Virus genome (UHGV): UHGV-0207246
DNA length: 44,163 nt
Reading direction: 5' to 3' (one strand)
Source of the DNA: a virus
Under the pieces are notes generated by a model that searched no databases, was not told where the DNA came from, and saw only the letters and a list, made by a program, of their open reading frames with translations. A program made the translations under genes and the position numbers. Positions 2,911-23,861 of this stretch are shown here, piece after piece; within the stretch, counting starts at the first letter, position 1, and each line of letters begins with the position of its first letter.

Positions 2911-3090
2911 ATGGCAGATAATTATGTAATCCGAGAAAAGTATACCCACGTTGACATTGTCGATGGTCAGGTGATGCCTGTTCGCGGTGTGGTAGAAGCG
3001 GATGAACTGGTTGCAACCCAACAGGACAACGAAGAAGCGCACAACAACGGCGGCGGTACCAAGCGTCGTCGCCGTAAGTCAGAGGAATAA
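2911..3090 (+). CDS. hypothetical small protein (59 aa) with basic C-terminus GGGTKRRRRKSEE
   Basis: ATG at 2911 with RBS AAGGAAAGG; 60 codons hand-translated; below ORF-track threshold. Confidence 0.4.
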   Translation: MADNYVIREKYTHVDIVDGQVMPVRGVVEADELVATQQDNEEAHNNGGGTKRRRRKSEE

Positions 3091-3093
3091 TTT

Positions 3094-3606
3094 ATGCCGC
3101 TAATCGTGGAAGATGGGTCAATAGTACCTGGCGCTGACAGTTACATTAGTCTGGCTGACGCCCGCGCGTTAGCGGCTAATTATGGTCTGGAGTTGCCGGC
3201 AGACGATACCGCCGCAGAGGTGGCCTTGCGAAACGGCGCTACTTATGTAGGGCTTGCAGAACCGCAGATGTGCGGGCGTCGCGTATCCGCTGAACAGTCT
3301 CTGGCGTACCCTCGCACCGGTGTTACGTTAAACGGGTTCCCTGTCGCGAACAACGCCATTCCGAAACAGGTAATTCTTGCGCAGGTAATCGCCACGGCTA
3401 CATACGGTGCGGGTACTGAGGTTCGGGCTAACTCAGACGGTCGTTCCGTGCAGACTGAGCGTGTAGAGGGTGCAGTGACAGTGACCTACTTCAACAATGG
3501 CGACAGTGGGGCCACAACCGCGATTACCGCGGCGGATGACGCTCTACGCCCGTTACTGTGTGGTGGTCTCAACAATGGCTTCTCGTTTAACGTGTACCGG
3601 GGTTAA
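3094..3606 (+). CDS. head-tail connector/adaptor protein candidate
   Basis: Position between capsid and tail genes; weak resemblance to gp6-like connector N-termini; function inferred mainly from synteny. Confidence 0.4.
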   Translation: MPLIVEDGSIVPGADSYISLADARALAANYGLELPADDTAAEVALRNGATYVGLAEPQMCGRRVSAEQSLAYPRTGVTLNGFPVANNAIPKQVILAQVIATATYGAGTEVRANSDGRSVQTERVEGAVTVTYFNNGDSGATTAITAADDALRPLLCGGLNNGFSFNVYRG

Positions 3607-8592: not shown

Positions 8593-9009
8593 ATGAAACT
8601 TTCTGATTTTTATTTTGCGGACCGCCACGCCGCCGGTACTAAAATGCCTATCCTTCTGCCCAGTGGTAAAGATTCCGGTGAATGGTTGCAGGTCATCGGC
8701 CCCGATTGTGACGCTGGTGTTCGTGCGGGCCGTGCCTACACAACGGCAATTCGACGCCTTACGGAAGAACTTGCGCCATTAGATAAAGAGTGCGAGGCGC
8801 TGAATAACTGGGCGCGCTATAATGATGAGAAGGGCTGGCGGGTGATGGACCTGAACAAGCAGCTTGCCGTGGAAATCGTCACCGGTTGGTCATTCGACGA
8901 ACCATTCAGCAAAGAGGCGCTTGCTAACCTGTTCGACCAGTACAGTGGGTTGGCAGAGGCCGTAGTTAAGCATCACACCGATAGCCGTGAGAAACTCTCG
9001 GAAAAGTAA
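8593..9009 (+). CDS. tail assembly chaperone (gpG-like)
   Basis: Position immediately upstream of tape measure; followed by overlapping ORF in -1 frame. Confidence 0.55.
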   Translation: MKLSDFYFADRHAAGTKMPILLPSGKDSGEWLQVIGPDCDAGVRAGRAYTTAIRRLTEELAPLDKECEALNNWARYNDEKGWRVMDLNKQLAVEIVTGWSFDEPFSKEALANLFDQYSGLAEAVVKHHTDSREKLSEK

Positions 9010-9098
9010 AAGCGCTGTATGAATTTGCGCAATGGTGCTTTGTCGACCGCCACAAACGTAAGCAATTCGACGACATCGCGGCGGGCCACCAGGCGGCT

Positions 9099-9371
9099 TT
9101 GATTGCAATGGGCGTGATTAAAGAACCGCAGATGAAAGAAGCGACGGGGCCGGAATGCCCCGTTTCTCTTATCGACGTGTTCGAGAAATACCGTGCCATT
9201 AAATTCCTACAGCGCGAAACAGATGATACTATCGTTATAATCCCGCGCGATGCGCTCAAATGGCAAGATTTGGTAGCGTTTCGTGATGTCGCCGGTTACG
9301 GCATAAGTTTGTTCGAAGCCGAGGTTATCATGGGCTTAGACGGAATATTTGAGGGCAGAGAAGATGGCTGA
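9099..9371 (+). CDS. tail assembly chaperone extension (gpT-like), probably expressed as a -1 frameshift fusion with 8593..9009
   Basis: -1 frame is open from 8991; shifty A_AAG at 9003-9006 just before the zero-frame stop; classic G/GT arrangement before tape measure. Confidence 0.45.
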   Translation: MIAMGVIKEPQMKEATGPECPVSLIDVFEKYRAIKFLQRETDDTIVIIPRDALKWQDLVAFRDVAGYGISLFEAEVIMGLDGIFEGREDG

Positions 9372-11676
9372 TACGGCTTCCCTAATTGCCAGAGTAAAAA
9401 CAGAAGGCGCTGATGTAGCCGCTAAACAGCTTGACGCTATGGCGGCATCCGCAGACCGTGCGGACACATCCGTAAACAAACTAACGCCGGATGTTAATAA
9501 AGTAAACTCCGCTACGTCTAAAGCGGCTTCTGACGGTTTCGCTAAATTCCGTAACGCCGCCGGGCAGGTAGGCTTCCAGGTGCAGGACATGGTCGTCCAG
9601 TTGCAGTCCGGCACGTCTGCATTCGTAGCAATCGGGCAACAAGGCTCTCAGCTTGCGGGTGCTTTCGGCCCTGGTGGCGCGGTGCTTGGGGCCGTAATTG
9701 CTCTTGCGTCAGCAATCGGTGGTGTCCTGTATAAATCGTTAACCGAAGCAGAAGGCAGTTCAAAAGACCTCGAAGCCGCACAGAAACAGCTAAAAGATAC
9801 TTTCCAGCAAACGGCGTCCGGCTCTCTCGAACTGACAGACGGCCTTATCCAGCTTACCCAAATCAGCAGAGAAGCGGCGGAGACTCAGCTTGCGCTGGCT
9901 AAGGCTAACGCGGACCTTATCGCACAGCAAACAGCTAAAGCTGTTCGTGAGGACGCAGAATCATGGGAGACATGGAAGGCATCCACAGCATCAGCTATCA
10001 GCCAGTACGATGCATTGGTCTCTAAAGGTGCGGATGTAGGCGACACGTTAGAAAAACTCGGTGGCACTTACGAGGGTAACATCGTAGGCGTCAACATGCT
10101 GGCGCAGAATATCGCAGAGCTTAGCAGTAAGTTTGGGGTTAACCGTGACCAGGCGCTGGAGATGATAGCGGCGCAGAGTGCGTTTAACAAAGAGCCAACC
10201 GCCGAGAATGCCCGTCGCATCGCCGATGTGTTTACCGACTGGCTCGGTAATACAAAACAGTTGAACCCGGAACTTATCCGCCTGACCGACAATGCCAACA
10301 AGAACGCCACGGCACTGGAGAACGCGGAGAAGTCCGCAAACGCGGCGGCGGAGGCCCAAAAGAATCTTGGTCGTAACGTCAACTCAACAACGCAGAGATT
10401 CCAGGAACAGAACGAAGCTATCGTCAAAAACCAGCAAATCGCTATCTTAAGTGACCGCGAGCGTATCCGTGCGCAAGCTGAACTGGATAAGCAGGCGTTC
10501 GCTAAACGTGAAGCTGTCACCAAAGAACAGATCGCCGCGTATAATGCTGCGCGTGACACGGAAGCACAACAAGACATCGCTCGCATCGACGCTACCGAAA
10601 AAGCGAAGGCCGACCGCGAGGCCAAATCGAACGAGAAACGGCTGGCGGCACAAGCCAAACGCGAAGAAACGGCGGCTGAACGACAGAAAAAAGCGGCGGA
10701 AGATTTCCTGGCTACTGTCGACCGCACAACCGGAGATGAGATTTCGCGCATTACCGCTGCGGAAGAACAGAAACTGGCGAAACTGGAGGAGTTCAACCGC
10801 GCCGGAACGATAAGCCAGCAGCAGTATGAAAACGCCAAAACTCAAATTATGCTCACAGCCGAGCAGGCCAGACAGGAAGAACTGGATAAGAAAAGAAAAG
10901 AGCAGCAGGAAAAGCAGCAGAAAGGCGAGGACTTCATGGCACAGATTATGGGTCAGAACGCTACTGAGCTTGAGCTTCTCGACATCCAGGAACAGCAGAA
11001 ACTGGAGGTAGCGGATAAGTACCGTGAGCAGGGGCTTATTAGTGAGAAGCAGTACCAGGCGGCGCTTAACGCCATCAATGAGCAGTATGCTACGAAGCGT
11101 GCCGACGCAACGGCAACCGCCTTCGGTAACATGGCTTCAAACATCGGGTCTGCGTTGGGTGAGGCTTCTGGCGCGTATAAGGCATTCGCTATCGTACAGG
11201 CCACTATAGCCACGTACACCGCAGCTATTGAAGCGTATAAGTCAACGGCTGCTATCCCTGTAGTTGGCCCGTTCCTGGCCCCCGTAGCCGCTGCTGCTGC
11301 AGTTGGGGCGGGTATGGCGCAGATTTCCGCCATCAGGTCCGCGCGTGAGCAGGGCGGTCAGTTATCCGCAGGACAGGCTTCCACCATCGCCGAACGCGGT
11401 AAACCCGAAGTTATCATGCCCGCTGGGGCATCGCGTGTGCGCACGGCACAGCAGATGAAAGAAATTATGGGGCAAAACGGGTCTTCTTCCGGCCCATCTA
11501 ATGTTACTATCGTAAATAACACGAGTTCTCAAATTGGCAACGTATCCACCGAACAAGATGATGAAGGCCGTTTGCGTATCATCATCGAGGAGCAGGTGGC
11601 CGCCTCTTTGCAGAACAGCAACAGTAAGATTAGCAAGGCCCGCAAGGCCACAAGAAATGCGCCGGGGTTCAAATAA
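9364..11676 (+). CDS. tail tape measure protein
   Basis: About 770 aa, Ala/Gln/Glu/Lys-rich coiled coil, hydrophobic Gly/Ala-rich segments, located after chaperone pair; start at ATG with RBS GAGGG (track uses upstream TTG). Confidence 0.8.
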   Translation: MADTASLIARVKTEGADVAAKQLDAMAASADRADTSVNKLTPDVNKVNSATSKAASDGFAKFRNAAGQVGFQVQDMVVQLQSGTSAFVAIGQQGSQLAGAFGPGGAVLGAVIALASAIGGVLYKSLTEAEGSSKDLEAAQKQLKDTFQQTASGSLELTDGLIQLTQISREAAETQLALAKANADLIAQQTAKAVREDAESWETWKASTASAISQYDALVSKGADVGDTLEKLGGTYEGNIVGVNMLAQNIAELSSKFGVNRDQALEMIAAQSAFNKEPTAENARRIADVFTDWLGNTKQLNPELIRLTDNANKNATALENAEKSANAAAEAQKNLGRNVNSTTQRFQEQNEAIVKNQQIAILSDRERIRAQAELDKQAFAKREAVTKEQIAAYNAARDTEAQQDIARIDATEKAKADREAKSNEKRLAAQAKREETAAERQKKAAEDFLATVDRTTGDEISRITAAEEQKLAKLEEFNRAGTISQQQYENAKTQIMLTAEQARQEELDKKRKEQQEKQQKGEDFMAQIMGQNATELELLDIQEQQKLEVADKYREQGLISEKQYQAALNAINEQYATKRADATATAFGNMASNIGSALGEASGAYKAFAIVQATIATYTAAIEAYKSTAAIPVVGPFLAPVAAAAAVGAGMAQISAIRSAREQGGQLSAGQASTIAERGKPEVIMPAGASRVRTAQQMKEIMGQNGSSSGPSNVTIVNNTSSQIGNVSTEQDDEGRLRIIIEEQVAASLQNSNSKISKARKATRNAPGFK

Positions 11677-16515: not shown

Positions 16516-18471
16516 ATGTCAAGCGGATGCGGTGACGTTTTAAGCCTGGCGGATTTACAAACCGCCAAGAAACACCAAATTTTTGAAGCTGAAGTTATCA
16601 CCGGTAAATCTGGTGGTGTCGCAGGTGGCGCTGATATTGATTACGCAACAAACCAGGTTACAGGACAGACACAGAAGACGCTCCCGGCGGTGTTACGTGA
16701 CGCTGGGTTTTCTCCTGTGTCGTGGGACTTCTCTACCGGCGGTACGTTAACTGTTAATGACCGCGACAAAGTTGTCTACGACCCCGTAAGTGAAACATGG
16801 TATTCGTACGTAGGTGCACTTCCTGTTACAGTTCCCGCTGGTTTTAACCCAGTAGGAAACGCTGACTGGAAACCTCGGACAGACCCTAATTTGAGAGAAG
16901 ATTTGGCCAGCATAGATGGCTTAAGTTTGGTATACCTCCCGAGCTACGATGATTTGCGCGCGTATTCTGGCCCGGCAACATATCTGTATGTCAGAGGCCG
17001 TAGCGCTGGAGCAACAATGGCTGGCGGATGGTTTAGCGTAATTTCAGGCGATGCTACAACGCAAGATGATGATGGGACCGTTTTAGTAGATGCAATCAAT
17101 CGGAGATGGGGCCGCGTATTTAATGGGGTTTTACTCCCAGAATGGTTTGGGGCCGATCCATCAGGTACCTCAGATTGCACGAGTGCTTTTAATAAGTGTT
17201 TTGCGTCTGCAAAAGGAAAAGAAGTAAGGCTCGGTGGTAAGTATAAATTCCTTAGCCCTATTGTAGTTGACTACGAGGACCAATATAGCCTCAAGGTGAT
17301 AGGTACTGGAAGTTCAAACCATAAGAGCGGCGCGAAGACAGATAACTACTGTTATCTTGATTTTGATGATATTCCAGAAAACTCAAGAGCTTTAACATTC
17401 AAAGGTGTTAGAGGGCTTACCTTAAATGATTTCCATATATCACACCGTAAAGTTAGCCCATCACTATCAGTTGCGTTATGGGTTACGCAACTTGATAACT
17501 TTAAAATTGATGGTGTAACTATCGATTCAAATTCTGGCCCGGCCGGGCAGGGTATGCGTTTCGGCGAGTCTGGAGGAGAAGACTGTGCCTTCATGGGTTC
17601 GGTGGATAACTGTAAAATATGGATGCACGGAGGAGGCCCGGCGGTTGCCGTACAACCTCTATGTACATCCATAACATTTAAAAACTGCTACCAAATTGGG
17701 GGCTACTACTACTTCCAGAGCTGCATTTATACCTCCATGGTAACCTGCGCTTCAGAAGGAAGCGAGGTAAAAGGTTATGGCTATGTTCTGTATGCCGTAA
17801 AAGGGTTTACAGCTATAAACTGTGCGGGCGAAGCCAATAAAAACGGGGTGTTCTATATTTCTAATGGCTCTAGTAATGTAGAAATACTCTCTCCTTTTGG
17901 TGCAGGTAATAACACAGGCAATACAGCAGTAGCTGGTGCGCTTGTTTTGGTGGATGGCAGTGGTGGGTATAATGCTAATATTCATATAGATAATCCAGTA
18001 AGCCTGACCCCAGGTTCAAACGCACAGCATGATATTGGTTTTCTTTCGGCCAATAAAAACATGAGTGTCACAAACGTGTACGCAGAAAACCTACTGAAAG
18101 GTATTGGTGGTGAATCTTCGTGGGCGGCTTCAAACCTCAGCCTTAGTGGAGACCTCTCTCAAAGAGATTTCACGTTCACCATCCCAGGTTGGACGGTAAC
18201 ATCTCCAGTGATGAGTGGGAAGTATATTCGCAGCGGTAAGCGTGTTGATTTTACACTCACCGTGAGTGGTAACTCCCTATCAACATCGCTTGGTATAAGC
18301 TTTATACAACTTCCATTTGGTACATTATCGGCACAAACTGTCTGCTCCGTAGCCAGTACTACTGGAAATAGCTTTGGTAGCGCGGTTATAGATAGCACTG
18401 GCAAAATATTTGTACCAACAACCTCGGGGGCGTCTGGGATTATAATTTCTGGGTCTATCCTTACGCTGTAA
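16516..18471 (+). CDS. tailspike / receptor-binding protein with pectate-lyase-like beta-helix (depolymerase candidate)
   Basis: Motif LLPEWFGADPSGTSDCTSAFNKCFASAKGKEV typical of pectate lyase superfamily beta-helix tailspikes; last gene of structural module. Confidence 0.6.
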   Translation: MSSGCGDVLSLADLQTAKKHQIFEAEVITGKSGGVAGGADIDYATNQVTGQTQKTLPAVLRDAGFSPVSWDFSTGGTLTVNDRDKVVYDPVSETWYSYVGALPVTVPAGFNPVGNADWKPRTDPNLREDLASIDGLSLVYLPSYDDLRAYSGPATYLYVRGRSAGATMAGGWFSVISGDATTQDDDGTVLVDAINRRWGRVFNGVLLPEWFGADPSGTSDCTSAFNKCFASAKGKEVRLGGKYKFLSPIVVDYEDQYSLKVIGTGSSNHKSGAKTDNYCYLDFDDIPENSRALTFKGVRGLTLNDFHISHRKVSPSLSVALWVTQLDNFKIDGVTIDSNSGPAGQGMRFGESGGEDCAFMGSVDNCKIWMHGGGPAVAVQPLCTSITFKNCYQIGGYYYFQSCIYTSMVTCASEGSEVKGYGYVLYAVKGFTAINCAGEANKNGVFYISNGSSNVEILSPFGAGNNTGNTAVAGALVLVDGSGGYNANIHIDNPVSLTPGSNAQHDIGFLSANKNMSVTNVYAENLLKGIGGESSWAASNLSLSGDLSQRDFTFTIPGWTVTSPVMSGKYIRSGKRVDFTLTVSGNSLSTSLGISFIQLPFGTLSAQTVCSVASTTGNSFGSAVIDSTGKIFVPTTSGASGIIISGSILTL

Positions 18472-18640: not shown

Positions 18641-20061
18641 TTCTTACCTCGTCTCTTCATGTAATTAAGCAACTCTTCCTGCACCGATTTCTTCTCGTCA
18701 GTACGCGCGGCAACAACCTCATCAAGCGTGTCTTTAGCAACGATATGATAGAGGAACACCGGGCGCTCGTGGCCCGCCTGTTTCTGGCGGACCGGGCCAA
18801 TACGCTCGACAACCTGCAAATAGTGCTCAAGGTTCCAGCCTTGCGAAATAAACGCCAGATGATGTCCGCCGTCCTGCAAATTCAAACCATGCCCCGCTGA
18901 CGCGGGGTGCACGCATAAGATTTCGATTTCGCCACGGTTCCACGCTTCCATCTGCTTATTGCCCTTAACACCTTTGGCGAACGCCTGCGCCTGCGGGAAC
19001 CGCTTAAGGATACGTTCCAGTTCGTGCTTGAACTGATAAGCCACAAGCAGCGGCGCACCCTGTAACTCCTCAACAATCGACTCGAGCGCATCCAGTTTCG
19101 TGTCGTGCACTCTCTCCCAGTCTTTGGTTGCTTCGCCATCCGGCCCGGACACATATACGGCACCGGATGCAATCTGCAGGCACTTCGACGTCTTCGCCGC
19201 CGCGTTAGCCGCTTCAACTTCCCCGCTCTCCAGTTCCGCAAATAATTTTTCCTCCATATCAATGTACGCCTGACGCGCCTTCTTCGGCAGGTCGATTTCA
19301 ACCGGTACAATAATCGGCGCTTCACAACCAAACCACTCGGCGGCGTCAATCGTAAGGCTGATGTCTTTCATCTTCTGATGAATCTCGTTATCAGCCCCCG
19401 GGCGTGCGTGATATTCACGGGCCATAGCTGATTTGCCTTTCTGCACCGAGTTAAACCAGCGGTCGGTGAATGCCGTGTACGATGAGCCGAGGCGCTCGCC
19501 TGCGTCGATAAACCAGTTCTGCCCCCACAGGTCTTTGAGGCCGTTTGGTGATGGTGTGCCGGTGAGGTTAATAAAACGCTTAACCTTACCGAACGCCACT
19601 TTACTAAGCGCCTTTGCTCGCTTGCTGCCACCAGAACGGCTACGGAACGATTTCAGCTTCGTGCTTTCATCGGCAACGATAACCGTAAAAGGCCAGTCGT
19701 CTTTGCCGTAGTAGTCAATCAGCCACTCGATAACTTCGTAGTTCGTGCACACCACATTAGCGTCAGACTCCAGCGCCGCGATGCGGCGCTTCTCCGAACC
19801 CGTTGCATCGACGACACGCAGACACGGGAAACCCCACTTAGTTTGTTCTGCGGGCCACGTACCTGACGCAACACGTAAAGGGGCGAGGATTAACACGCGG
19901 TCCTCTTCCGTAAGCTGCCCGTTGCGGAACAGGCGGTTTAATGCCCACAGTACGCTGCCAGTCTTCCCGGCACCCATGCTCGCCCATATGTTGCAGCGAT
20001 GGTGTTGCAACATGAACGAAGTCATGAGCTTCTGATATTCGCGCCTTTGAAACTTACTCAT
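18637..20061 (-). CDS. SNF2/DEAD-box family DNA helicase
   Basis: Walker A GAGKTG and DExx-like box ADESTKLK; 474 aa. Confidence 0.7.
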   Translation of the reverse strand: MSKFQRREYQKLMTSFMLQHHRCNIWASMGAGKTGSVLWALNRLFRNGQLTEEDRVLILAPLRVASGTWPAEQTKWGFPCLRVVDATGSEKRRIAALESDANVVCTNYEVIEWLIDYYGKDDWPFTVIVADESTKLKSFRSRSGGSKRAKALSKVAFGKVKRFINLTGTPSPNGLKDLWGQNWFIDAGERLGSSYTAFTDRWFNSVQKGKSAMAREYHARPGADNEIHQKMKDISLTIDAAEWFGCEAPIIVPVEIDLPKKARQAYIDMEEKLFAELESGEVEAANAAAKTSKCLQIASGAVYVSGPDGEATKDWERVHDTKLDALESIVEELQGAPLLVAYQFKHELERILKRFPQAQAFAKGVKGNKQMEAWNRGEIEILCVHPASAGHGLNLQDGGHHLAFISQGWNLEHYLQVVERIGPVRQKQAGHERPVFLYHIVAKDTLDEVVAARTDEKKSVQEELLNYMKRRGKK

Positions 20062-20279: not shown

Positions 20280-20564
20280 CTAACTATAATAGTTCGCTAT
20301 TAGGTCGTCAACCTGTTTGAACGACCCGACGACAAAAACATTCGCACCACGTTTACGCATCCGCTCATGCTCTCGTAACTGGTGTGGGTCAGGCTTCGTG
20401 CTTTCGTCTTTCTTCACCTCGACGAACCAGACGATGCCGCCCGGGAGAATTACCAGCAGGTCGGGAGCGCCGGAGCGCCCCTCATAAGACAGTTTACGGA
20501 CGAGGCCCCCGATGGCCTCGAATCGCTCTTTTGCGTATTTCTGTATTTTTCCTTCCGGGGTCAT
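20280..20564 (-). CDS. VRR-NUC domain nuclease (PD-(D/E)XK)
   Basis: Motif GAPDLLVILPGGIVWFVEVKK; start set at ATG (track begins at upstream TTG). Confidence 0.55.
   Translation of the reverse strand: MTPEGKIQKYAKERFEAIGGLVRKLSYEGRSGAPDLLVILPGGIVWFVEVKKDESTKPDPHQLREHERMRKRGANVFVVGSFKQVDDLIANYYS
20283..20311 (-). promoter_or_regulatory. class II promoter (TTGACG-17-TATAGT)
   Basis: Reverse complement TTGACGACCTAATAGCGAACTATTATAGT; near-identical spacer to promoters at 24601 and 26753; lies within 3' end of upstream CDS. Confidence 0.6.
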
Positions 20565-20713
20565 GAGCGCAGAACCCAAGTTATAAATGCCCCGCCCAGA
20601 ACGGCAACGCCAACAAACTTAAAGAACAGGCCGTAACAGAACATCGCAGCTATTCCCGCGCCGAGTAACAGTGCGAGCATGGTTACTATGGTCCAAAATA
20701 CAAACTTTGTCAT
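20561..20713 (-). CDS. small membrane protein (50 aa, two hydrophobic segments)
   Basis: RBS GAGGGG; ATGA overlap with VRR-NUC start; hand-translated MTKFVFWTIVTMLALLLGAGIAAMFCYGLFFKFVGVAVLGGAFITWVLRS. Confidence 0.4.
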   Translation of the reverse strand: MTKFVFWTIVTMLALLLGAGIAAMFCYGLFFKFVGVAVLGGAFITWVLRS

Positions 20714-20795
20714 AATACACACCCCTCACGTTTCGTATGTTCAGTACCGCAGCGCGGACAGATTCGACAGTCTTCTTCATAAAACCAGTAGATTT

Positions 20796-20927
20796 TCATT
20801 CCAGCACCCACAGATAAATTGCGATGAACATGCCCAATATGGCAACCATCATGCCGTATTGACCCTCGTGACAGTAGACACCGGCAGCAAATCCCGCCAG
20901 TACCGCGATAATCAGTTTACTTGGCAT
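20796..20927 (-). CDS. small membrane protein (43 aa)
   Basis: RBS AAGGAG 9 nt upstream; hand-translated MPSKLIIAVLAGFAAGVYCHEGQYGMMVAILGMFIAIYLWVLE. Confidence 0.35.
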   Translation of the reverse strand: MPSKLIIAVLAGFAAGVYCHEGQYGMMVAILGMFIAIYLWVLE

Positions 20928-21612
20928 CTCTACATTCTCCTTCAGGCCACCTATTAGGAAAAGACGGTATATGTGAAACTTCTCTCGCCGCTTTTATTCT
21001 TTTAATGGCGGGACCTATCTCCGTGACCATTTCAATGAATGTAAACCGGTGTCCTCTGGTAAGATTACATGTCTGACAACAAGAAACGCAGTTAGATACT
21101 ATGTGCCCGCTTGTATTATCTATGCGGTCTACCCCGACTTTTGTAGTGCTTCCGCAATAATGGCATGGCTGTGATATTAGTTTAATAACGCTTTCCAGTG
21201 TTAAATCGCAGATAAGCCCTTTTCCTGAATCTGCTCTTTTGTATCCTAACAAAAGCGCGTACGCCCGCGTCCTTTGGTCCTTATTCACCAGTTCCCTGCG
21301 TTGCTTGTTGAGACACTCCCGGCAATCTTTCCTGATATGAGAGCCATTACTTTTATTTCCTTTCCTGAAGTTTTCCTCTGTTAAAGGTTTTACCTCCCCA
21401 CACTTTCTGCATTTAACAGGCTTCCCAGTGAAAACATACCAAGGGCTTTCTCGTCTGGATTTACCTTGTAATTTAAGTTTTTCGTCATACTTTTCCTTCC
21501 TGTTAGCATTTACACACTCTTTACACCAGCGTTGCAGCCCGAGGCGCGTTGACTTTGAAAAATACTCTGTAGTCGCCGGTTTATCTTCGCCGCATCTTGA
21601 ACACTTTTTCAT
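20917..21612 (-). CDS. HNH homing endonuclease with two N-terminal Cys4 zinc-ribbon repeats
   Basis: Repeats CSRCGEDKP...CKEC and CRKCGEVKP...CREC then HNH core CHYCG...DRIDNTSGH...CN; start at ATG with RBS GGAG. Confidence 0.7.
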   Translation of the reverse strand: MKKCSRCGEDKPATTEYFSKSTRLGLQRWCKECVNANRKEKYDEKLKLQGKSRRESPWYVFTGKPVKCRKCGEVKPLTEENFRKGNKSNGSHIRKDCRECLNKQRRELVNKDQRTRAYALLLGYKRADSGKGLICDLTLESVIKLISQPCHYCGSTTKVGVDRIDNTSGHIVSNCVSCCQTCNLTRGHRFTFIEMVTEIGPAIKRIKAAREVSHIPSFPNRWPEGECRDAK

Positions 21613-21623
21613 TAATAACTCCA

Positions 21624-21658
21624 AAAAAAAATACCGACATAGCCATTATATCGGTATT
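21624..21658 (-). terminator. rho-independent terminator downstream of DNA polymerase
   Basis: On minus strand ATACCGA-loop-TCGGTAT followed by T9. Confidence 0.5.
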
Positions 21659-21672
21659 TACATTTTCTACAA
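21645..21672 (-). promoter_or_regulatory. candidate promoter for HNH gene (TTGTAG-16-TATAAT)
   Basis: Perfect TATAAT on minus strand located in the loop of the terminator hairpin. Confidence 0.35.
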
Positions 21673-21689
21673 CGTATTTCCTAAATCTA

Positions 21690-23861
21690 CTACTTGGCGT
21701 ATCTGTACATTTCGCTACCTTCTGCTACAAGAGGGAACCCCTCCGCCCATTCCGGCAATTCGCACATCAACCGCTCAAGCTCTGCTACATTGTATTCCGG
21801 TGAATCTGGTGTCTCGCAGATAATCTCATCGTGTACGTGAAGTACAATCGGGTAGCCGTTTGCTTCTACGTTCAGCAGGGCATTAGCCAGCAAATCACGG
21901 CACAATGCCTGAGTGCAGTTTTCCACCAGTTTACCCGAGTAGGTGTACTGGAACCCCCACTGACGGGTTAGCTGATTTTCGCCCTGGTACTTAATGCGCA
22001 CGTTAGTAGACACTTTTCCATCTTCGTCTGTTTCTTTCGACACGCTCAACCCGACGCCTGGATAAGACATAACGCGACCAGACGGCAACGTCATGCGCAG
22101 CCACCAACCGGCGACTTTGTTGCCGTTGTTATCTGTCTCCACGTTGCGCGAAAACTTAACGCCACGCGGCCCTGCGGTGAACTCTTTACCTGGGTTGCGG
22201 ATAGCCGCCATAGCCGCGTCTTCAATATCGCGCCAGAATTGGACTATTGCAGGATTAGCTTCCCGGTACATGCGCTTTAAAGCGTCACAGGTGCGCCAAA
22301 CTTTCTTATCAAGGATATATGAGGGTCGGTCATCTTTTTCACCAGGACGTGGTGGTCGCTTGGCTTCCTGAATACGCGCCCATTCGTATCCGCGTGCGGT
22401 AGCGGCCCAAATATGGTCCGGGAATGTACCGTCTAAAGTGTTAGTCATGTCATTCAAATCAAGACCTAAGTTTTTAGCAAACGTGACGAAAGCACCGACG
22501 CCCCCCGCGTAGCCGAGTCCCAGAACCATTGCTTTGGCTATTTGTCTTTGGTCCTTTGTTACGGCTTCATATGCAACATTGAACACCGTTGATGCGAGTT
22601 TCTTATACACATCAACCCCGTTTACAAATACTTCGATTAAATCGTCTTCACCCGCCAGCCACGCAAGCCCGCGACCCTCAACGTTAGAGTAATCGGCGAC
22701 GACAAACTTATGCCCTGCTTCCGGTATGATGCAACTGCGAACCGTCGATGCCGTTAGCTTGGCTACGTCAAATCGGCGGTGCGCACGGCCCTTAAGTAAC
22801 GCAGAAATGCCTTTATCCAGTTCATCATCATGATAGTACCCGCGCGCCAGGTTCTGCGGCTGGAAGCCTTTACCGGCAAATCGTAATGTACGCTTAGCTC
22901 CACCATACTGTATGCAACCGCGTCGGCGGTCGTCCGAAGAGCGGCCCAGCAGCAGCGGGGTATATTTCGTTGACGCTGTTGACGCGGCCCCGAGGCGCAT
23001 TTCGATAATCATCCGGGCGTCGTCCGGTAAATCATCATCTGCCAACAGGTCGTTAAGCGTCGACTTCTGTGCATTGTGTATGCGGTGCGCGGGCGAAAGT
23101 TCACGCAGAATCGGAAGGAAGTCTTTACCGGTAAGCGAGCCGCCATATTTACGTTGAGCTTCTTCCTGTAACTGTGCCTTGTGCTTCTCTACGGCTTCAA
23201 TCGCGGCTTCCGCCAGTGCGACGTCAACCTTAAATCCGCGGTCGTTGATTAACTGGTCAAGTTCCAGTACACGGTCTTCGAACTCGGAGTTACCCCAACG
23301 CGGCAGCTTATGGAAGACTTCACGCATCGCAGTGATGTCGCTCACGGCGTACTTGATGAACAGCGCCCACTCATCCGGGTGCGTTTCAGCAGTGTAGCGG
23401 CGGATTTTGTAGTTCTTCGGTGTCGGTTTAGAAAAACGCTGAATAAGCGCTTTGCCTCGTTTGTCTTTCGCGTTGTCTGCGGACACGCCAAGCACTTCAC
23501 ACAGCGCATCAAGAGAACCCGGCAGCGCGTGACGAAACGCCCAAATCATCGTATCGATAGTGTTGCTTACCGGAATATCAAAGCCCCAGCAATGCTTCAT
23601 GACGAGCCTGTCGAACATTGAGCCATTGTGCCACACCATCTTAATGCGACTGTTTGGCTTAACCAGACGGCGCAGTGCGCGGTGCAAATCCCCCGGCATG
23701 TCGCTGCCGTCTGTGCAATCCCATACCTGTACAGGCTCGTCATCAAAAGCATAGGTACAGATAAGCACTTCGGTAGTCGGGTGTTCGGCGTAAGCATAGG
23801 AGCCGAATTTCTTTAAATCGGCTTCGGAGAATGTTTCAAAGTCTAAGAACAGGTAACTCAT
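21690..23861 (-). CDS. family A DNA polymerase with 3'-5' exonuclease domain
   Basis: Exo I FLDFETFS; Pol motif A DYSNVEGR, motif B RQIAKAMVLGLGYAGG, motif C LHVHDEI. Confidence 0.85.
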   Translation of the reverse strand: MSYLFLDFETFSEADLKKFGSYAYAEHPTTEVLICTYAFDDEPVQVWDCTDGSDMPGDLHRALRRLVKPNSRIKMVWHNGSMFDRLVMKHCWGFDIPVSNTIDTMIWAFRHALPGSLDALCEVLGVSADNAKDKRGKALIQRFSKPTPKNYKIRRYTAETHPDEWALFIKYAVSDITAMREVFHKLPRWGNSEFEDRVLELDQLINDRGFKVDVALAEAAIEAVEKHKAQLQEEAQRKYGGSLTGKDFLPILRELSPAHRIHNAQKSTLNDLLADDDLPDDARMIIEMRLGAASTASTKYTPLLLGRSSDDRRRGCIQYGGAKRTLRFAGKGFQPQNLARGYYHDDELDKGISALLKGRAHRRFDVAKLTASTVRSCIIPEAGHKFVVADYSNVEGRGLAWLAGEDDLIEVFVNGVDVYKKLASTVFNVAYEAVTKDQRQIAKAMVLGLGYAGGVGAFVTFAKNLGLDLNDMTNTLDGTFPDHIWAATARGYEWARIQEAKRPPRPGEKDDRPSYILDKKVWRTCDALKRMYREANPAIVQFWRDIEDAAMAAIRNPGKEFTAGPRGVKFSRNVETDNNGNKVAGWWLRMTLPSGRVMSYPGVGLSVSKETDEDGKVSTNVRIKYQGENQLTRQWGFQYTYSGKLVENCTQALCRDLLANALLNVEANGYPIVLHVHDEIICETPDSPEYNVAELERLMCELPEWAEGFPLVAEGSEMYRYAK

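Follow-up and report, generated by a model that had tools for sequence, protein, structure and literature searches.

A candidate homing-endonuclease cassette at the end of a phage DNA polymerase gene, with a putative promoter inside a probable terminator hairpin

The virus genome UHGV-0207246, a stretch of 44,163 nucleotides that we analysed at its full length (hereafter, the window), carries on its minus strand a gene for a 231-amino-acid protein that follows the gene for a family-A DNA polymerase. This gene was previously proposed, from the sequence alone, to encode a free-standing HNH homing endonuclease whose −10 promoter element lies in the loop of the hairpin that terminates polymerase transcription. 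Our comparison with related phages suggests, with a probability of roughly 0.6, that the gene belongs to a homing-endonuclease cassette seated within the last codons of the polymerase gene, and that this cassette carries a terminator hairpin together with its own internal promoter (Table 1). Specifically, the cassette would comprise substitute polymerase codons with double stops, a 77-nucleotide spacer between the polymerase and endonuclease genes, a gene for a zinc-ribbon nuclease resembling PacI, and a right junction that continues in frame into resident DNA.

The 4-kb stretch around the cassette matches 456 phage records, all from Guernseyvirinae-type siphophages, and the top matches are Kagunavirus phages of Escherichia coli (Bas72–74, KMB35, K1G and others) with approximately 90% identity. 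A sensitive nucleotide search with the cassette alone recovers it from four of these 456 records (Bas72, Bas73, Bas74 and KMB35), always with at least 99.6% identity, and the isolates Bas70, Bas76 and K1G are without it. Thus, the endonuclease gene is clearly not conserved at this position in all relatives. Identity to Bas72 and KMB35 is essentially 100% across positions 20719..21752 and falls to roughly 90% outside this tract. When the window is compared with the metagenomic contigs L034 and L015, the tract of identity covers 20914..21737 with two mismatches and is flanked by dense divergence, ending sharply only 14–30 nucleotides past the cassette junctions. An older copy, 95% identical and with the same cassette end, resides in a Snoke-like flank on contig L035. 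The GC content of the cassette is 41.7%, compared with 50.4% for the window, which is in the lowest 2% for stretches of that size.

Tracts of near-complete identity within a background of roughly 90%, with a replacement polymerase end travelling along, are characteristic of co-conversion and recent lateral spread, and they indicate that transfer of this cassette is recent. Also consistent with a free-standing homing endonuclease gene is its sporadic occurrence at one precise locus, outside any intron or intein, and the intact state of the empty sites. The proposal that this endonuclease gene is free-standing and mobile therefore gains support from its absence in HNH-less relatives, the sharp tract boundaries and the low GC content, and we consider it very probable that the cassette is a mobile unit.

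The empty site, whose examination the original prediction had recommended, is intact in the HNH-less phages XY1, Snoke and K1G. There, the polymerase stop codon overlaps the start of a gene for a 43-amino-acid membrane-like protein, with nothing in between (..TAT GCY AAG TAA for the polymerase frame and ATG CYA AGT AAA.. for the small gene), and the polymerase 3′-end DNA of K1G and XY1 reads ..GAAGG..TATGCYAAGTAAACTG.. Alignment with XY1, Snoke and K1G places the left junction directly after GCAGAAGGT, although a copy of GCCAAGTA at either end leaves the exact limits of the cassette uncertain by a few nucleotides. The replacement polymerase end is followed by a second in-frame TAG (21689..21687), so that the gene closes with TAG TAG (21692..21687). 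The substitute C-terminal codons and double stops keep the polymerase complete, and the recoding of TAT to TAC removes the start codon of the overlapping small downstream gene. At the right junction, the endonuclease open reading frame (ORF) carries on in the same frame through the resident ..GCC AAG TAA, such that its last three or four codons and its stop are the original end of the resident polymerase gene. As a result, the 43-amino-acid gene retains an 11-nucleotide overlap, now with the endonuclease gene. The idea that the entire C-terminal tail of the endonuclease is a relic of the polymerase was ruled out by the ..PSFPNR(W/Y).. sequence that homologues share.

The 77-nucleotide spacer has the sequence ATTTAGGAAATACG-TTGTAG-AAAATGTAAATACCGA-TATAAT-GGCTATGTCGGTATTTTTTTTT-GGAG-TTATTA-ATG, and it contains a hairpin with a T-run directly after it. 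An intrinsic terminator is expected to consist of a stable stem-loop followed by a U tract of 7–9 nucleotides, and this element has both (13 base pairs, −13.6 kcal/mol and U9). It is the sole canonical terminator-like site with a long T-run on the minus strand of the replication cluster, and no such hairpin follows the polymerase gene in the HNH-less genomes. We consider it likely that the element functions as an RNA hairpin or terminator. An exact search of IMG/VR for the 31-nucleotide hairpin gave no match; the IMG/VR copy carries a TATAGT variant. A sub-threshold match to the Rfam family STnc240 (positions 21622–21689, minus strand; 27 bits, where the family's gathering score is 55, with an E value of 0.16) is probably mere terminator-like similarity.

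The TATAAT hexamer lies exactly 16 nucleotides downstream of TTGTAG, as had been proposed. The hexamer is indeed perfect, but its placement in the hairpin loop requires amendment, as full pairing draws four of its nucleotides into the weak upper stem and leaves only two for the loop, and the hexamer is better described as lying at the apex. Relative to the sigma-70 consensus, the −10 element matches at six of six positions and the −35 element at three of six (TTG). The pattern TTG-N3-(16–18)-TATAAT occurs at three sites in the window, compared with 0.85 expected, and the other two are obvious strong promoters. A composite scan, which required promoter-like hexamers and a hairpin of 8 or more base pairs whose apex holds the −10 element, also returned three sites in the window, compared with roughly 1.2 expected by chance, and a long stem with a T-run is found only at the TTGTAG/TATAAT hairpin. 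Furthermore, the cassette copy in L034 and L015 carries TATAGT, owing to a change at position 21646 that is one of only two differences in 824 nucleotides. The important −10 positions are unaffected by this change, which also introduces a G–C pair and so tightens the hairpin, folded with its flanks, from −14.6 to −16.5 kcal/mol, and TATAGT is the −10 hexamer of the phage’s strongest promoters. On balance, we consider a functional internal promoter somewhat more likely than not.

A direct repeat (R1 and R2) brackets the −35 element, with the second copy roughly 19 nucleotides past the first. The pair covaries between lineages, reading CGGAAA/CGGAAA in contig L029 and in Dhillonvirus, and AGAATAC/AGAATGC in contig L026; in Dhillonvirus, the repeat is accounted for by an 18-nucleotide duplication of the DNA just past the polymerase stop codon. 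Within the replication cluster, the three promoter-like sites that score as strongest (minus strand; 26781–26753, 24629–24601 and 20311–20283) have in common the extended motif TTGAC(A/G)..(G/T)AATAG-N4-CTATTATAGT. A small inverted repeat in this motif, AATAG/CTATT, sits in the spacer beside the −10 element and may serve as an operator or mark promoters specific to the phage.

Table 1 Features of the candidate cassette and its neighbours in the window
Feature	Position	Strand	Description
Inserted cassette	20928..21707	minus	~780 bp; missing in HNH-less Kagunavirus relatives
Replacement polymerase 3′ end	21690..21716	minus	Codons S-E-M-Y-R-Y-A-K and TAG stop, cassette-borne
Repeat R1, conserved box GGAAATACG	21673..21681	minus	Directly 5′ of −35; invariant columns in 17-spacer alignment
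−35-like hexamer TTGTAG	21667..21672	minus	GTTG core invariant in 17 aligned spacers
Repeat R2, GTAAATACCG	21652..21661	minus	~19 nt past R1; base of hairpin 5′ arm
−10 hexamer TATAAT	21645..21650	minus	Hairpin apex, 16 nt downstream of TTGTAG
Hairpin AAATACCGATATA-ATGGC-TATGTCGGTATTT	21629..21659	minus	13-bp stem including one G·U, 5-nt loop, −13.6 kcal/mol
Predicted transcription start	21637..21640	minus	~7 nt past −10, within hairpin 3′ arm
Nine-T run (U9 in RNA)	21623..21631	minus	First three T pair within stem
Shine–Dalgarno sequence GGAG	21619..21622	minus	6 nt upstream of ATG
Endonuclease gene, 231 amino acids	20917..21612	minus	ATG at 21612; two zinc ribbons and PacI-like His-Me finger domain
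Family-A DNA polymerase gene	23861..21690	minus	
Resident 43-amino-acid membrane-like protein gene	20796..20927	minus	ATG 20927..20925, overlaps endonuclease stop by 11 nt
VRR-NUC nuclease gene	20579..20280	minus	After three small ORFs

Homologues of the endonuclease with 42–64% identity were recovered from phage records, IMG/VR and metagenomes by protein and locus searches. They fall into Cornellvirus-like metagenomic phages (contigs L009–L016) and Dhillonvirus, the latter including Sodalis phage SO-1 gp37, JLBYU60 gp40, Envy, Gluttony, Sloth and SECphi18, and wherever enough context is available, the homologue adjoins the 3′ end of a DNA_pol_A gene and the surrounding replication module is of the same type. 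Their distribution is likewise sporadic. Among Dhillonvirus records, 26 of 158 carry a homologue at the same place, and in the HNH-less members PTXU06, WF5505 and HK578 the polymerase gene is separated from the next gene by 4–31 nucleotides that contain no hairpin. In the Cornellvirus-like contig L016, the endonuclease stop merges with the last codons of the resident polymerase (..ACC AAA TAA TATTTGACT..), and the polymerase of the HNH-less phage FSL SP-031 ends at the equivalent site with ..GCC AAA TAA TATTTGACT.. The target region of the insertion encodes the conserved polymerase C terminus (..RY[AR]K-stop), which would be the kind of site favoured by homing endonucleases. Existing annotations of the homologues read only hypothetical protein, endonuclease VII or restriction endonuclease, and a literature search found no description of the terminator–promoter element or of this group of endonucleases; the BASEL paper that reports Bas72–74 does not discuss it. 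These proteins appear to constitute a new clade of PacI-like endonucleases that would target the 3′ end of phage polA.

The spacers of seven diverged lineages, although they differ in stem sequence, have the same layout: TTG, then 16–17 nucleotides, then a TAnnnT-type hexamer at the hairpin apex, then a T-rich tail (Table 2). Among the invariant columns of a plain alignment of 17 spacers are the −35 GTTG and the T that closes the −10 hexamer. Across the seven lineages, A2 and T6 of the apex hexamer are found in all seven and T1 in six, and in all seven the TTG–16/17–hexamer arrangement stands at the same place relative to the hairpin. The hexamer is wholly within the loop in L010, L014 and L026 when the stem is limited to its nine core pairs, whereas RNAfold and the composite scan extend the stems of L010 and L014 by one pair into the hexamer. 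The stems always pair, with energies from −13 to −25 kcal/mol, and a T-rich tail is present in every sampled copy except that of L011.

Table 2 Promoter-like hexamers and hairpin arms in spacers between polymerase and endonuclease genes
Copy	−35 hexamer	Spacing	Apex hexamer	Stem (5′ arm / 3′ arm)	Tail
Window	TTGTAG	16 nt	TATAAT	AAATACCGATATA / TATGTCGGTATTT	T9
L034	As window	16 nt	TATAGT	As window	As window
L010	TTGTAG	16 nt	TATAAT	GAATACAGG / CCTGTATTC	T7
L014, L016, L037	TTGCTG	16 nt	TATAAT	GAGTACAGG / CCTGTACTC	T8–10
L009	TTGTAG	17 nt	TATTGT	CGGGAGTATAGG / CCTGTACTCCCG	TTTTCTTT
L011	TTGCAG	17 nt	TATTGT	CGGGAGTATAG / CTGTACTCCCG	Poor T tract
L029	TTGTGG	16 nt	TATACT	AAACTCTGATA / TATCAGAGTTT	T8
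L026	TTGAAG	17 nt	TATTAT (whole loop)	AATGCGGGC / GCTCGCATT	T-rich
Dhillonvirus, L018-type	TTGCTT	17 nt	CATTAT	ACGTTGGGC / GTCTGGCGT	TTTTCTTTTT

The stem sequences differ between lineages through compensatory and G·U changes. RNAalifold found no structure in a MAFFT alignment of the spacers because the stems are out of register, a difficulty that was solved by use of a covariance model. A model built only from the L009–L016 group finds the element of the window (21621..21681; 30 bits, E value of 1.4e-4) and that of L026, and did not recover the Dhillonvirus or L029 elements. Pairing holds in 98.9% of cells of the structural alignment that this model yields, and five of 12 pairs are changed on both sides, compared with 0 of 500 shuffles that reach the observed values and with pairing of 36–64% in slid controls; these figures lean towards pairing because the alignment was fitted to the covariance model, but the contrast is still large. 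G·U pairs account for four of nine pairs in the L018-type Dhillonvirus stems and occur also in the window and in L009. Such pairs exist only in the sense-strand RNA, and thus they favour an RNA hairpin over a DNA operator. At the level of comparison between lineages, both halves of the earlier proposal, a free-standing mobile endonuclease and a promoter inside a terminator hairpin, are supported.

A second, native element of similar design was observed in Cornellvirus phages, in which TTGACT and TATCTT are separated by 17 nucleotides and the hexamer straddles the apex of a 12–14-base-pair stem that includes G·U pairs. It lies after the polymerase gene in the HNH-less phages FSL SP-031 (L070, 1260–1327) and Shemara (L071, 1410–1481), and after the endonuclease gene in L010 (4712–4770), L014 (1565–1625) and L016 (3194–3255), which therefore keep this native element in addition to that of the cassette. 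Only the copy in L010 has a T tract. A −10 element at a hairpin apex thus seems to be a habit of the subfamily that the cassette shares or has copied.

If the proposed reading is correct, RNA polymerase arriving from the polymerase gene would transcribe the spacer, and the hairpin and U9 tract would terminate the transcript, at least in part. Host sigma-70 RNA polymerase would bind TTGTAG-16-TATAAT within the same spacer and initiate roughly 7 nucleotides past the hexamer (near position 21638), in the 3′ arm of the hairpin. An RNA that starts internally has no 5′ arm and hence forms no terminator, and would extend through the endonuclease gene to the small genes beyond it, whose translation is coupled. 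The element would in this way insulate the nuclease gene from the strong promoters of the replication operon and give it, along with the downstream genes that would otherwise be silenced, a weak promoter of its own. In HNH-less phages, transcription of these small genes comes from promoters that precede the polymerase gene. Beyond the cassette, the next strong promoter is at 20311..20283, and so the cassette promoter would also relieve the polarity imposed by the cassette terminator. Termination, internal initiation and cleavage of HNH-less polymerase alleles are all activities that we infer for this cassette.

It is unlikely that the hairpin is only a terminator or attenuator of a promoterless endonuclease gene expressed by read-through, as is T4 mobE, and that TATAAT merely reflects the AT richness of the loop. 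In that case, the conserved GTTG box would serve another purpose or be a relic of the post-stop duplication. Several observations weigh against the reading that we favour, and some of them support this alternative. T4 mobE is promoterless, and its terminator is found only in mobE-containing phages. The site in the window is absent from the promoter-scan list because the −35 hexamer matches the consensus at only three of six positions, and the scan requires at least four per hexamer. In JLBYU60-type Dhillonvirus, the hairpin directly follows the polymerase stop with no −35 element at the right distance; L023 has a spacer of 37 nucleotides with neither a hairpin nor a comparable promoter; and the T tract of L011 is poor. 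The TTG of the L018-type Dhillonvirus spacers is supplied by 18 extra nucleotides, a diverged duplicate of the post-stop sequence (TAGCGGAAAYGTTG..) that is also present in the HNH-less phage PTXU06. Shuffled spacers contain a loose TTG-16/17-TAnnnT pattern somewhere with a probability of 0.05–0.19 per lineage, and because the lineages share ancestry, conservation of the hexamer does not amount to independent trials. Termination may itself be partial, because the stem has only three G–C pairs, and the loop is larger than is typical for intrinsic terminators. A search of the literature found no transcript maps for these phages. Finally, in the protein, the position of the canonical catalytic histidine (at the end of the first beta strand, in a ‘DH’ motif) is held by Arg163 (VDRID), as it is in PacI.

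In contrast, a hexamer that is a mere by-product of loop composition would not be expected to keep its A2, T6 and, with one exception, T1 while the stems change completely, nor would a TTG be expected to stay 16–17 nucleotides upstream in seven of seven lineages. A/T-rich loops of 5–10 nucleotides are also unusual, as terminator loops typically have 4 nucleotides (PMC2988022). That one of the only two substitutions between two cassette copies yields the −10 hexamer of the phage’s strongest promoters likewise argues for a promoter.

A second alternative, to which we give very little credence, holds that the gene is not selfish and instead supplies the replication or recombination module with an accessory nuclease that passes vertically and is frequently lost. 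The gene does always lie beside the polymerase gene in a replication module, in at least three phage groups, its protein is under strong purifying selection, and cleavage of HNH-less alleles is a prediction. However, loss alone cannot produce copies that are 99.6–100% identical, with sharp boundaries, in genomes that are roughly 90% identical. The scarcity of carriers among both Kagunavirus-related and Dhillonvirus records, the exceptionally low GC content, and the recoded duplicate of the polymerase end that the cassette bears also speak for a mobile element.

Highly improbable is the proposal that the inverted repeat is a DNA operator over the −10 element through which a dimeric regulator, possibly the endonuclease itself, represses transcription, with the T-run being incidental: I-TevI does repress its own promoter through an overlapping operator, PacI (the closest structural relative) cuts the palindrome TTAAT↓TAA as a Type IIP homodimer, the phage’s own strong promoters have a small inverted repeat beside the −10 element, and the −35 element lies between the direct repeats R1 and R2, in front of a gene whose protein has two zinc ribbons, but G·U pairs are A·C mismatches on the other strand and so the stems are not DNA palindromes, the arm sequences vary between lineages while pairing is kept, the T-rich tail is nearly universal, and the promoter region resembles the empty insertion site only in TTGTAG (Kagunavirus) or not at all (L010). 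This last, I-TevI-style likeness was treated as chance.

The fold of the endonuclease was established by a structure model, as its sequence has no Pfam match at E ≤ 0.01 (nor a relevant one when the limit is relaxed to E ≤ 10), no NCBIfam match, and only marginal matches in a search of PDB sequences. It falls below the gathering thresholds of the curated HNH families (Pfam HNH, HNH_3, HNH_5 and Endonuclease_7, and those of NCBIfam), and its sole profile match is PHROG 1035, ‘endonuclease VII’ (1.3e-29). In the model, two zinc ribbons (residues 1–48 and 65–109; C4/C7..C30/C33 and C68/C71..C97/C100), each a beta-ribbon with a helix, precede a domain at approximately residues 113–213 that has the beta-beta-alpha-metal fold of the HNH or His-Me finger superfamily. 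We hold the assignment of a nuclease fold with high confidence. The earlier description as an HNH endonuclease with two zinc ribbons therefore stands for the ribbons and, at the superfamily level, for HNH, but PacI-like is the closer label.

PacI (LGVDRSDSFEGYSPQN..C..CN) and the protein studied here (VGVDRIDNTSGHIVSN..C..CN) can be aligned over a common motif, GVDRxD..G(Y/H)..N..C..CN..(K/R)..F..EM..G.AI. The His-Me finger group of PacI, whose members are mostly viral, has no canonical catalytic histidine, and a tyrosine of the omega-loop serves instead (PMC5714182, PMC4081073). Arg163 is nearly invariant across the endonuclease family. His170 aligns with the tyrosine-bearing GY motif of the PacI omega-loop, and some homologues have tyrosine there. 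Residues D165, N174, N183, C150, C153, C179 and C182 are invariant or nearly so, and correspond to metal binding and to a structural Cys4 zinc site (CxxC..CxxC). Compared with the 95%-identical copy, the gene has 34 synonymous and three non-synonymous codon differences (dN/dS of 0.019), which indicates that the protein is under strong purifying selection.

The ORF start listed by program is a TTG at 21624, which is unlikely to be the true start because it is inside the T-run. Public annotations and gene calls also begin this ORF too far upstream, through the hairpin or spacer, as in L007 (KMB35, 8990–9721), L008 (JLBYU60, 2971–3603) and L011 (3469–4230); the conserved start is MK(x)C.

Each part of the proposed arrangement has a counterpart in known systems. 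In the T4 family, the promoters of I-TevI, I-TevII, I-TevIII, segB and Aeh1 mobE are sited so that their transcripts lack an inhibitory hairpin, and I-TevI is autorepressed (PMC2988022). As in those cases, the endonuclease gene here lies in a host transcription unit, the hairpin would form only on transcripts derived from upstream, and the gene’s own transcripts would escape the block. In T4, however, the block is occlusion of the ribosome-binding site, whereas here U9 follows the hairpin and the block would be termination of transcription. The Shine–Dalgarno sequence is outside the hairpin, 3′ of the U tract, and long and short transcripts are predicted to expose it to a similar degree, which sets the element apart from the translational version seen in T4. 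Unlike the T4 middle and late promoters, the cassette promoter looks like one for host sigma-70.

The mobE gene of T4 is likewise a free-standing HNH-family gene between two DNA-metabolism genes of an operon. A terminator is present there only in mobE-carrying phages, and a separate promoter compensates for the downstream gene nrdB (PMC2790892), so that in both systems the terminator arrives with the endonuclease and a promoter restores, or would restore, downstream expression. In contrast, the mobE terminator is inside the 5′ end of the ORF and the compensating promoter is at the 3′ end of mobE, whereas in the window the two share the same 31 nucleotides upstream of the ORF. The cassette element thus appears to combine both T4 ideas in one 31-nucleotide hairpin, and its regulation would be a variant of T4 tricks and not a new principle.

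Among nucleases, PacI (PDB 3m7k and 3ldy; His-Me finger ‘group 20’, PMC5714182) shares with this protein the common motif, the missing first-strand histidine and Cys4 zinc sites. It differs in having a catalytic tyrosine where His170 stands, an N-terminal region in place of the two zinc ribbons, and a gene in a bacterial chromosome, whereas the gene studied here is at a polymorphic site in a virulent siphophage. The Dhillonvirus and Cornellvirus-like homologues are members of the same family at the same position and mostly have the same spacer architecture, apart from the differences in stem sequence, −35 element and native hairpin described above. The zinc-ribbon HNH endonucleases associated with terminase and cos sites (PMC3592412) are also small phage proteins that combine zinc ribbons with an HNH-superfamily domain, but they have a canonical H-N-H motif, adjoin packaging genes and assist terminase. 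The present endonuclease is instead PacI-like, and its gene lies among replication genes and has the behaviour of a mobile insertion.

If this reading is true, a selfish nuclease gene could enter an essential phage operon with little harm, since the cassette would supply a spare polymerase C terminus, shield the nuclease gene from strong upstream transcription and then restart transcription for that gene and those behind it, all in 77 nucleotides. More tentatively, and as a reading that we hold to be less likely than not, the element may be a portable two-way insulator whose terminator and −10 element, sharing 31 nucleotides, have long co-evolved with the PacI-like clade, which would specialize on the last codons of family-A polymerase genes in Kagunavirus, Cornellvirus-like and Dhillonvirus phages, and thus in three or more siphophage groups. 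Its promoter half may derive from a duplicated copy of the DNA past the polymerase stop, and the covarying repeats R1 and R2 might be an operator bound by the two zinc ribbons for autoregulation. Phage genome engineering could make use of so compact a terminator with a promoter inside it, and Kagunaviruses are already in use as synthetic-biology chassis. Likewise, a PacI-like clade whose target region, at the end of phage polA, is narrow and conserved may include rare-cutting enzymes worth characterizing.

The minus-strand replication module that surrounds the cassette has the order DUF2800/PD-(D/E)XK nuclease, Enc34-type single-stranded-DNA-binding protein, family-A DNA polymerase, endonuclease ORF, three small ORFs, VRR-NUC nuclease and SNF2 helicase, in agreement with the expected position of the endonuclease gene between the polymerase and nuclease genes. 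Additional differences from relatives were observed in this part of the genome. At approximately position 20057, between the helicase gene and a gene for a 63-amino-acid protein, the window is without a DNA cytosine methyltransferase gene of roughly 0.8 kb that is present at the equivalent place in Bas72, Bas74, KMB35 and K1G, which constitutes a second presence–absence polymorphism of the module. Some 150 nucleotides at 20567–20715, in the region of a 53-amino-acid ORF between the 43-amino-acid gene and the VRR-NUC gene, are missing in Bas72 and KMB35 and present in Bas74. Within the polymerase gene, a patch of roughly 300 nucleotides (22428–22718) is only approximately 62% identical to Bas72 and KMB35, compared with 80–99% for the adjacent parts, and thus the gene appears to be a mosaic. 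Outside the module, the tailspike gene (16516–18471, plus strand) is mostly about 40–50% identical to its counterparts in Bas72 and KMB35, whereas neighbouring genes are approximately 90% identical, a divergence that looks like a receptor-binding domain swap.

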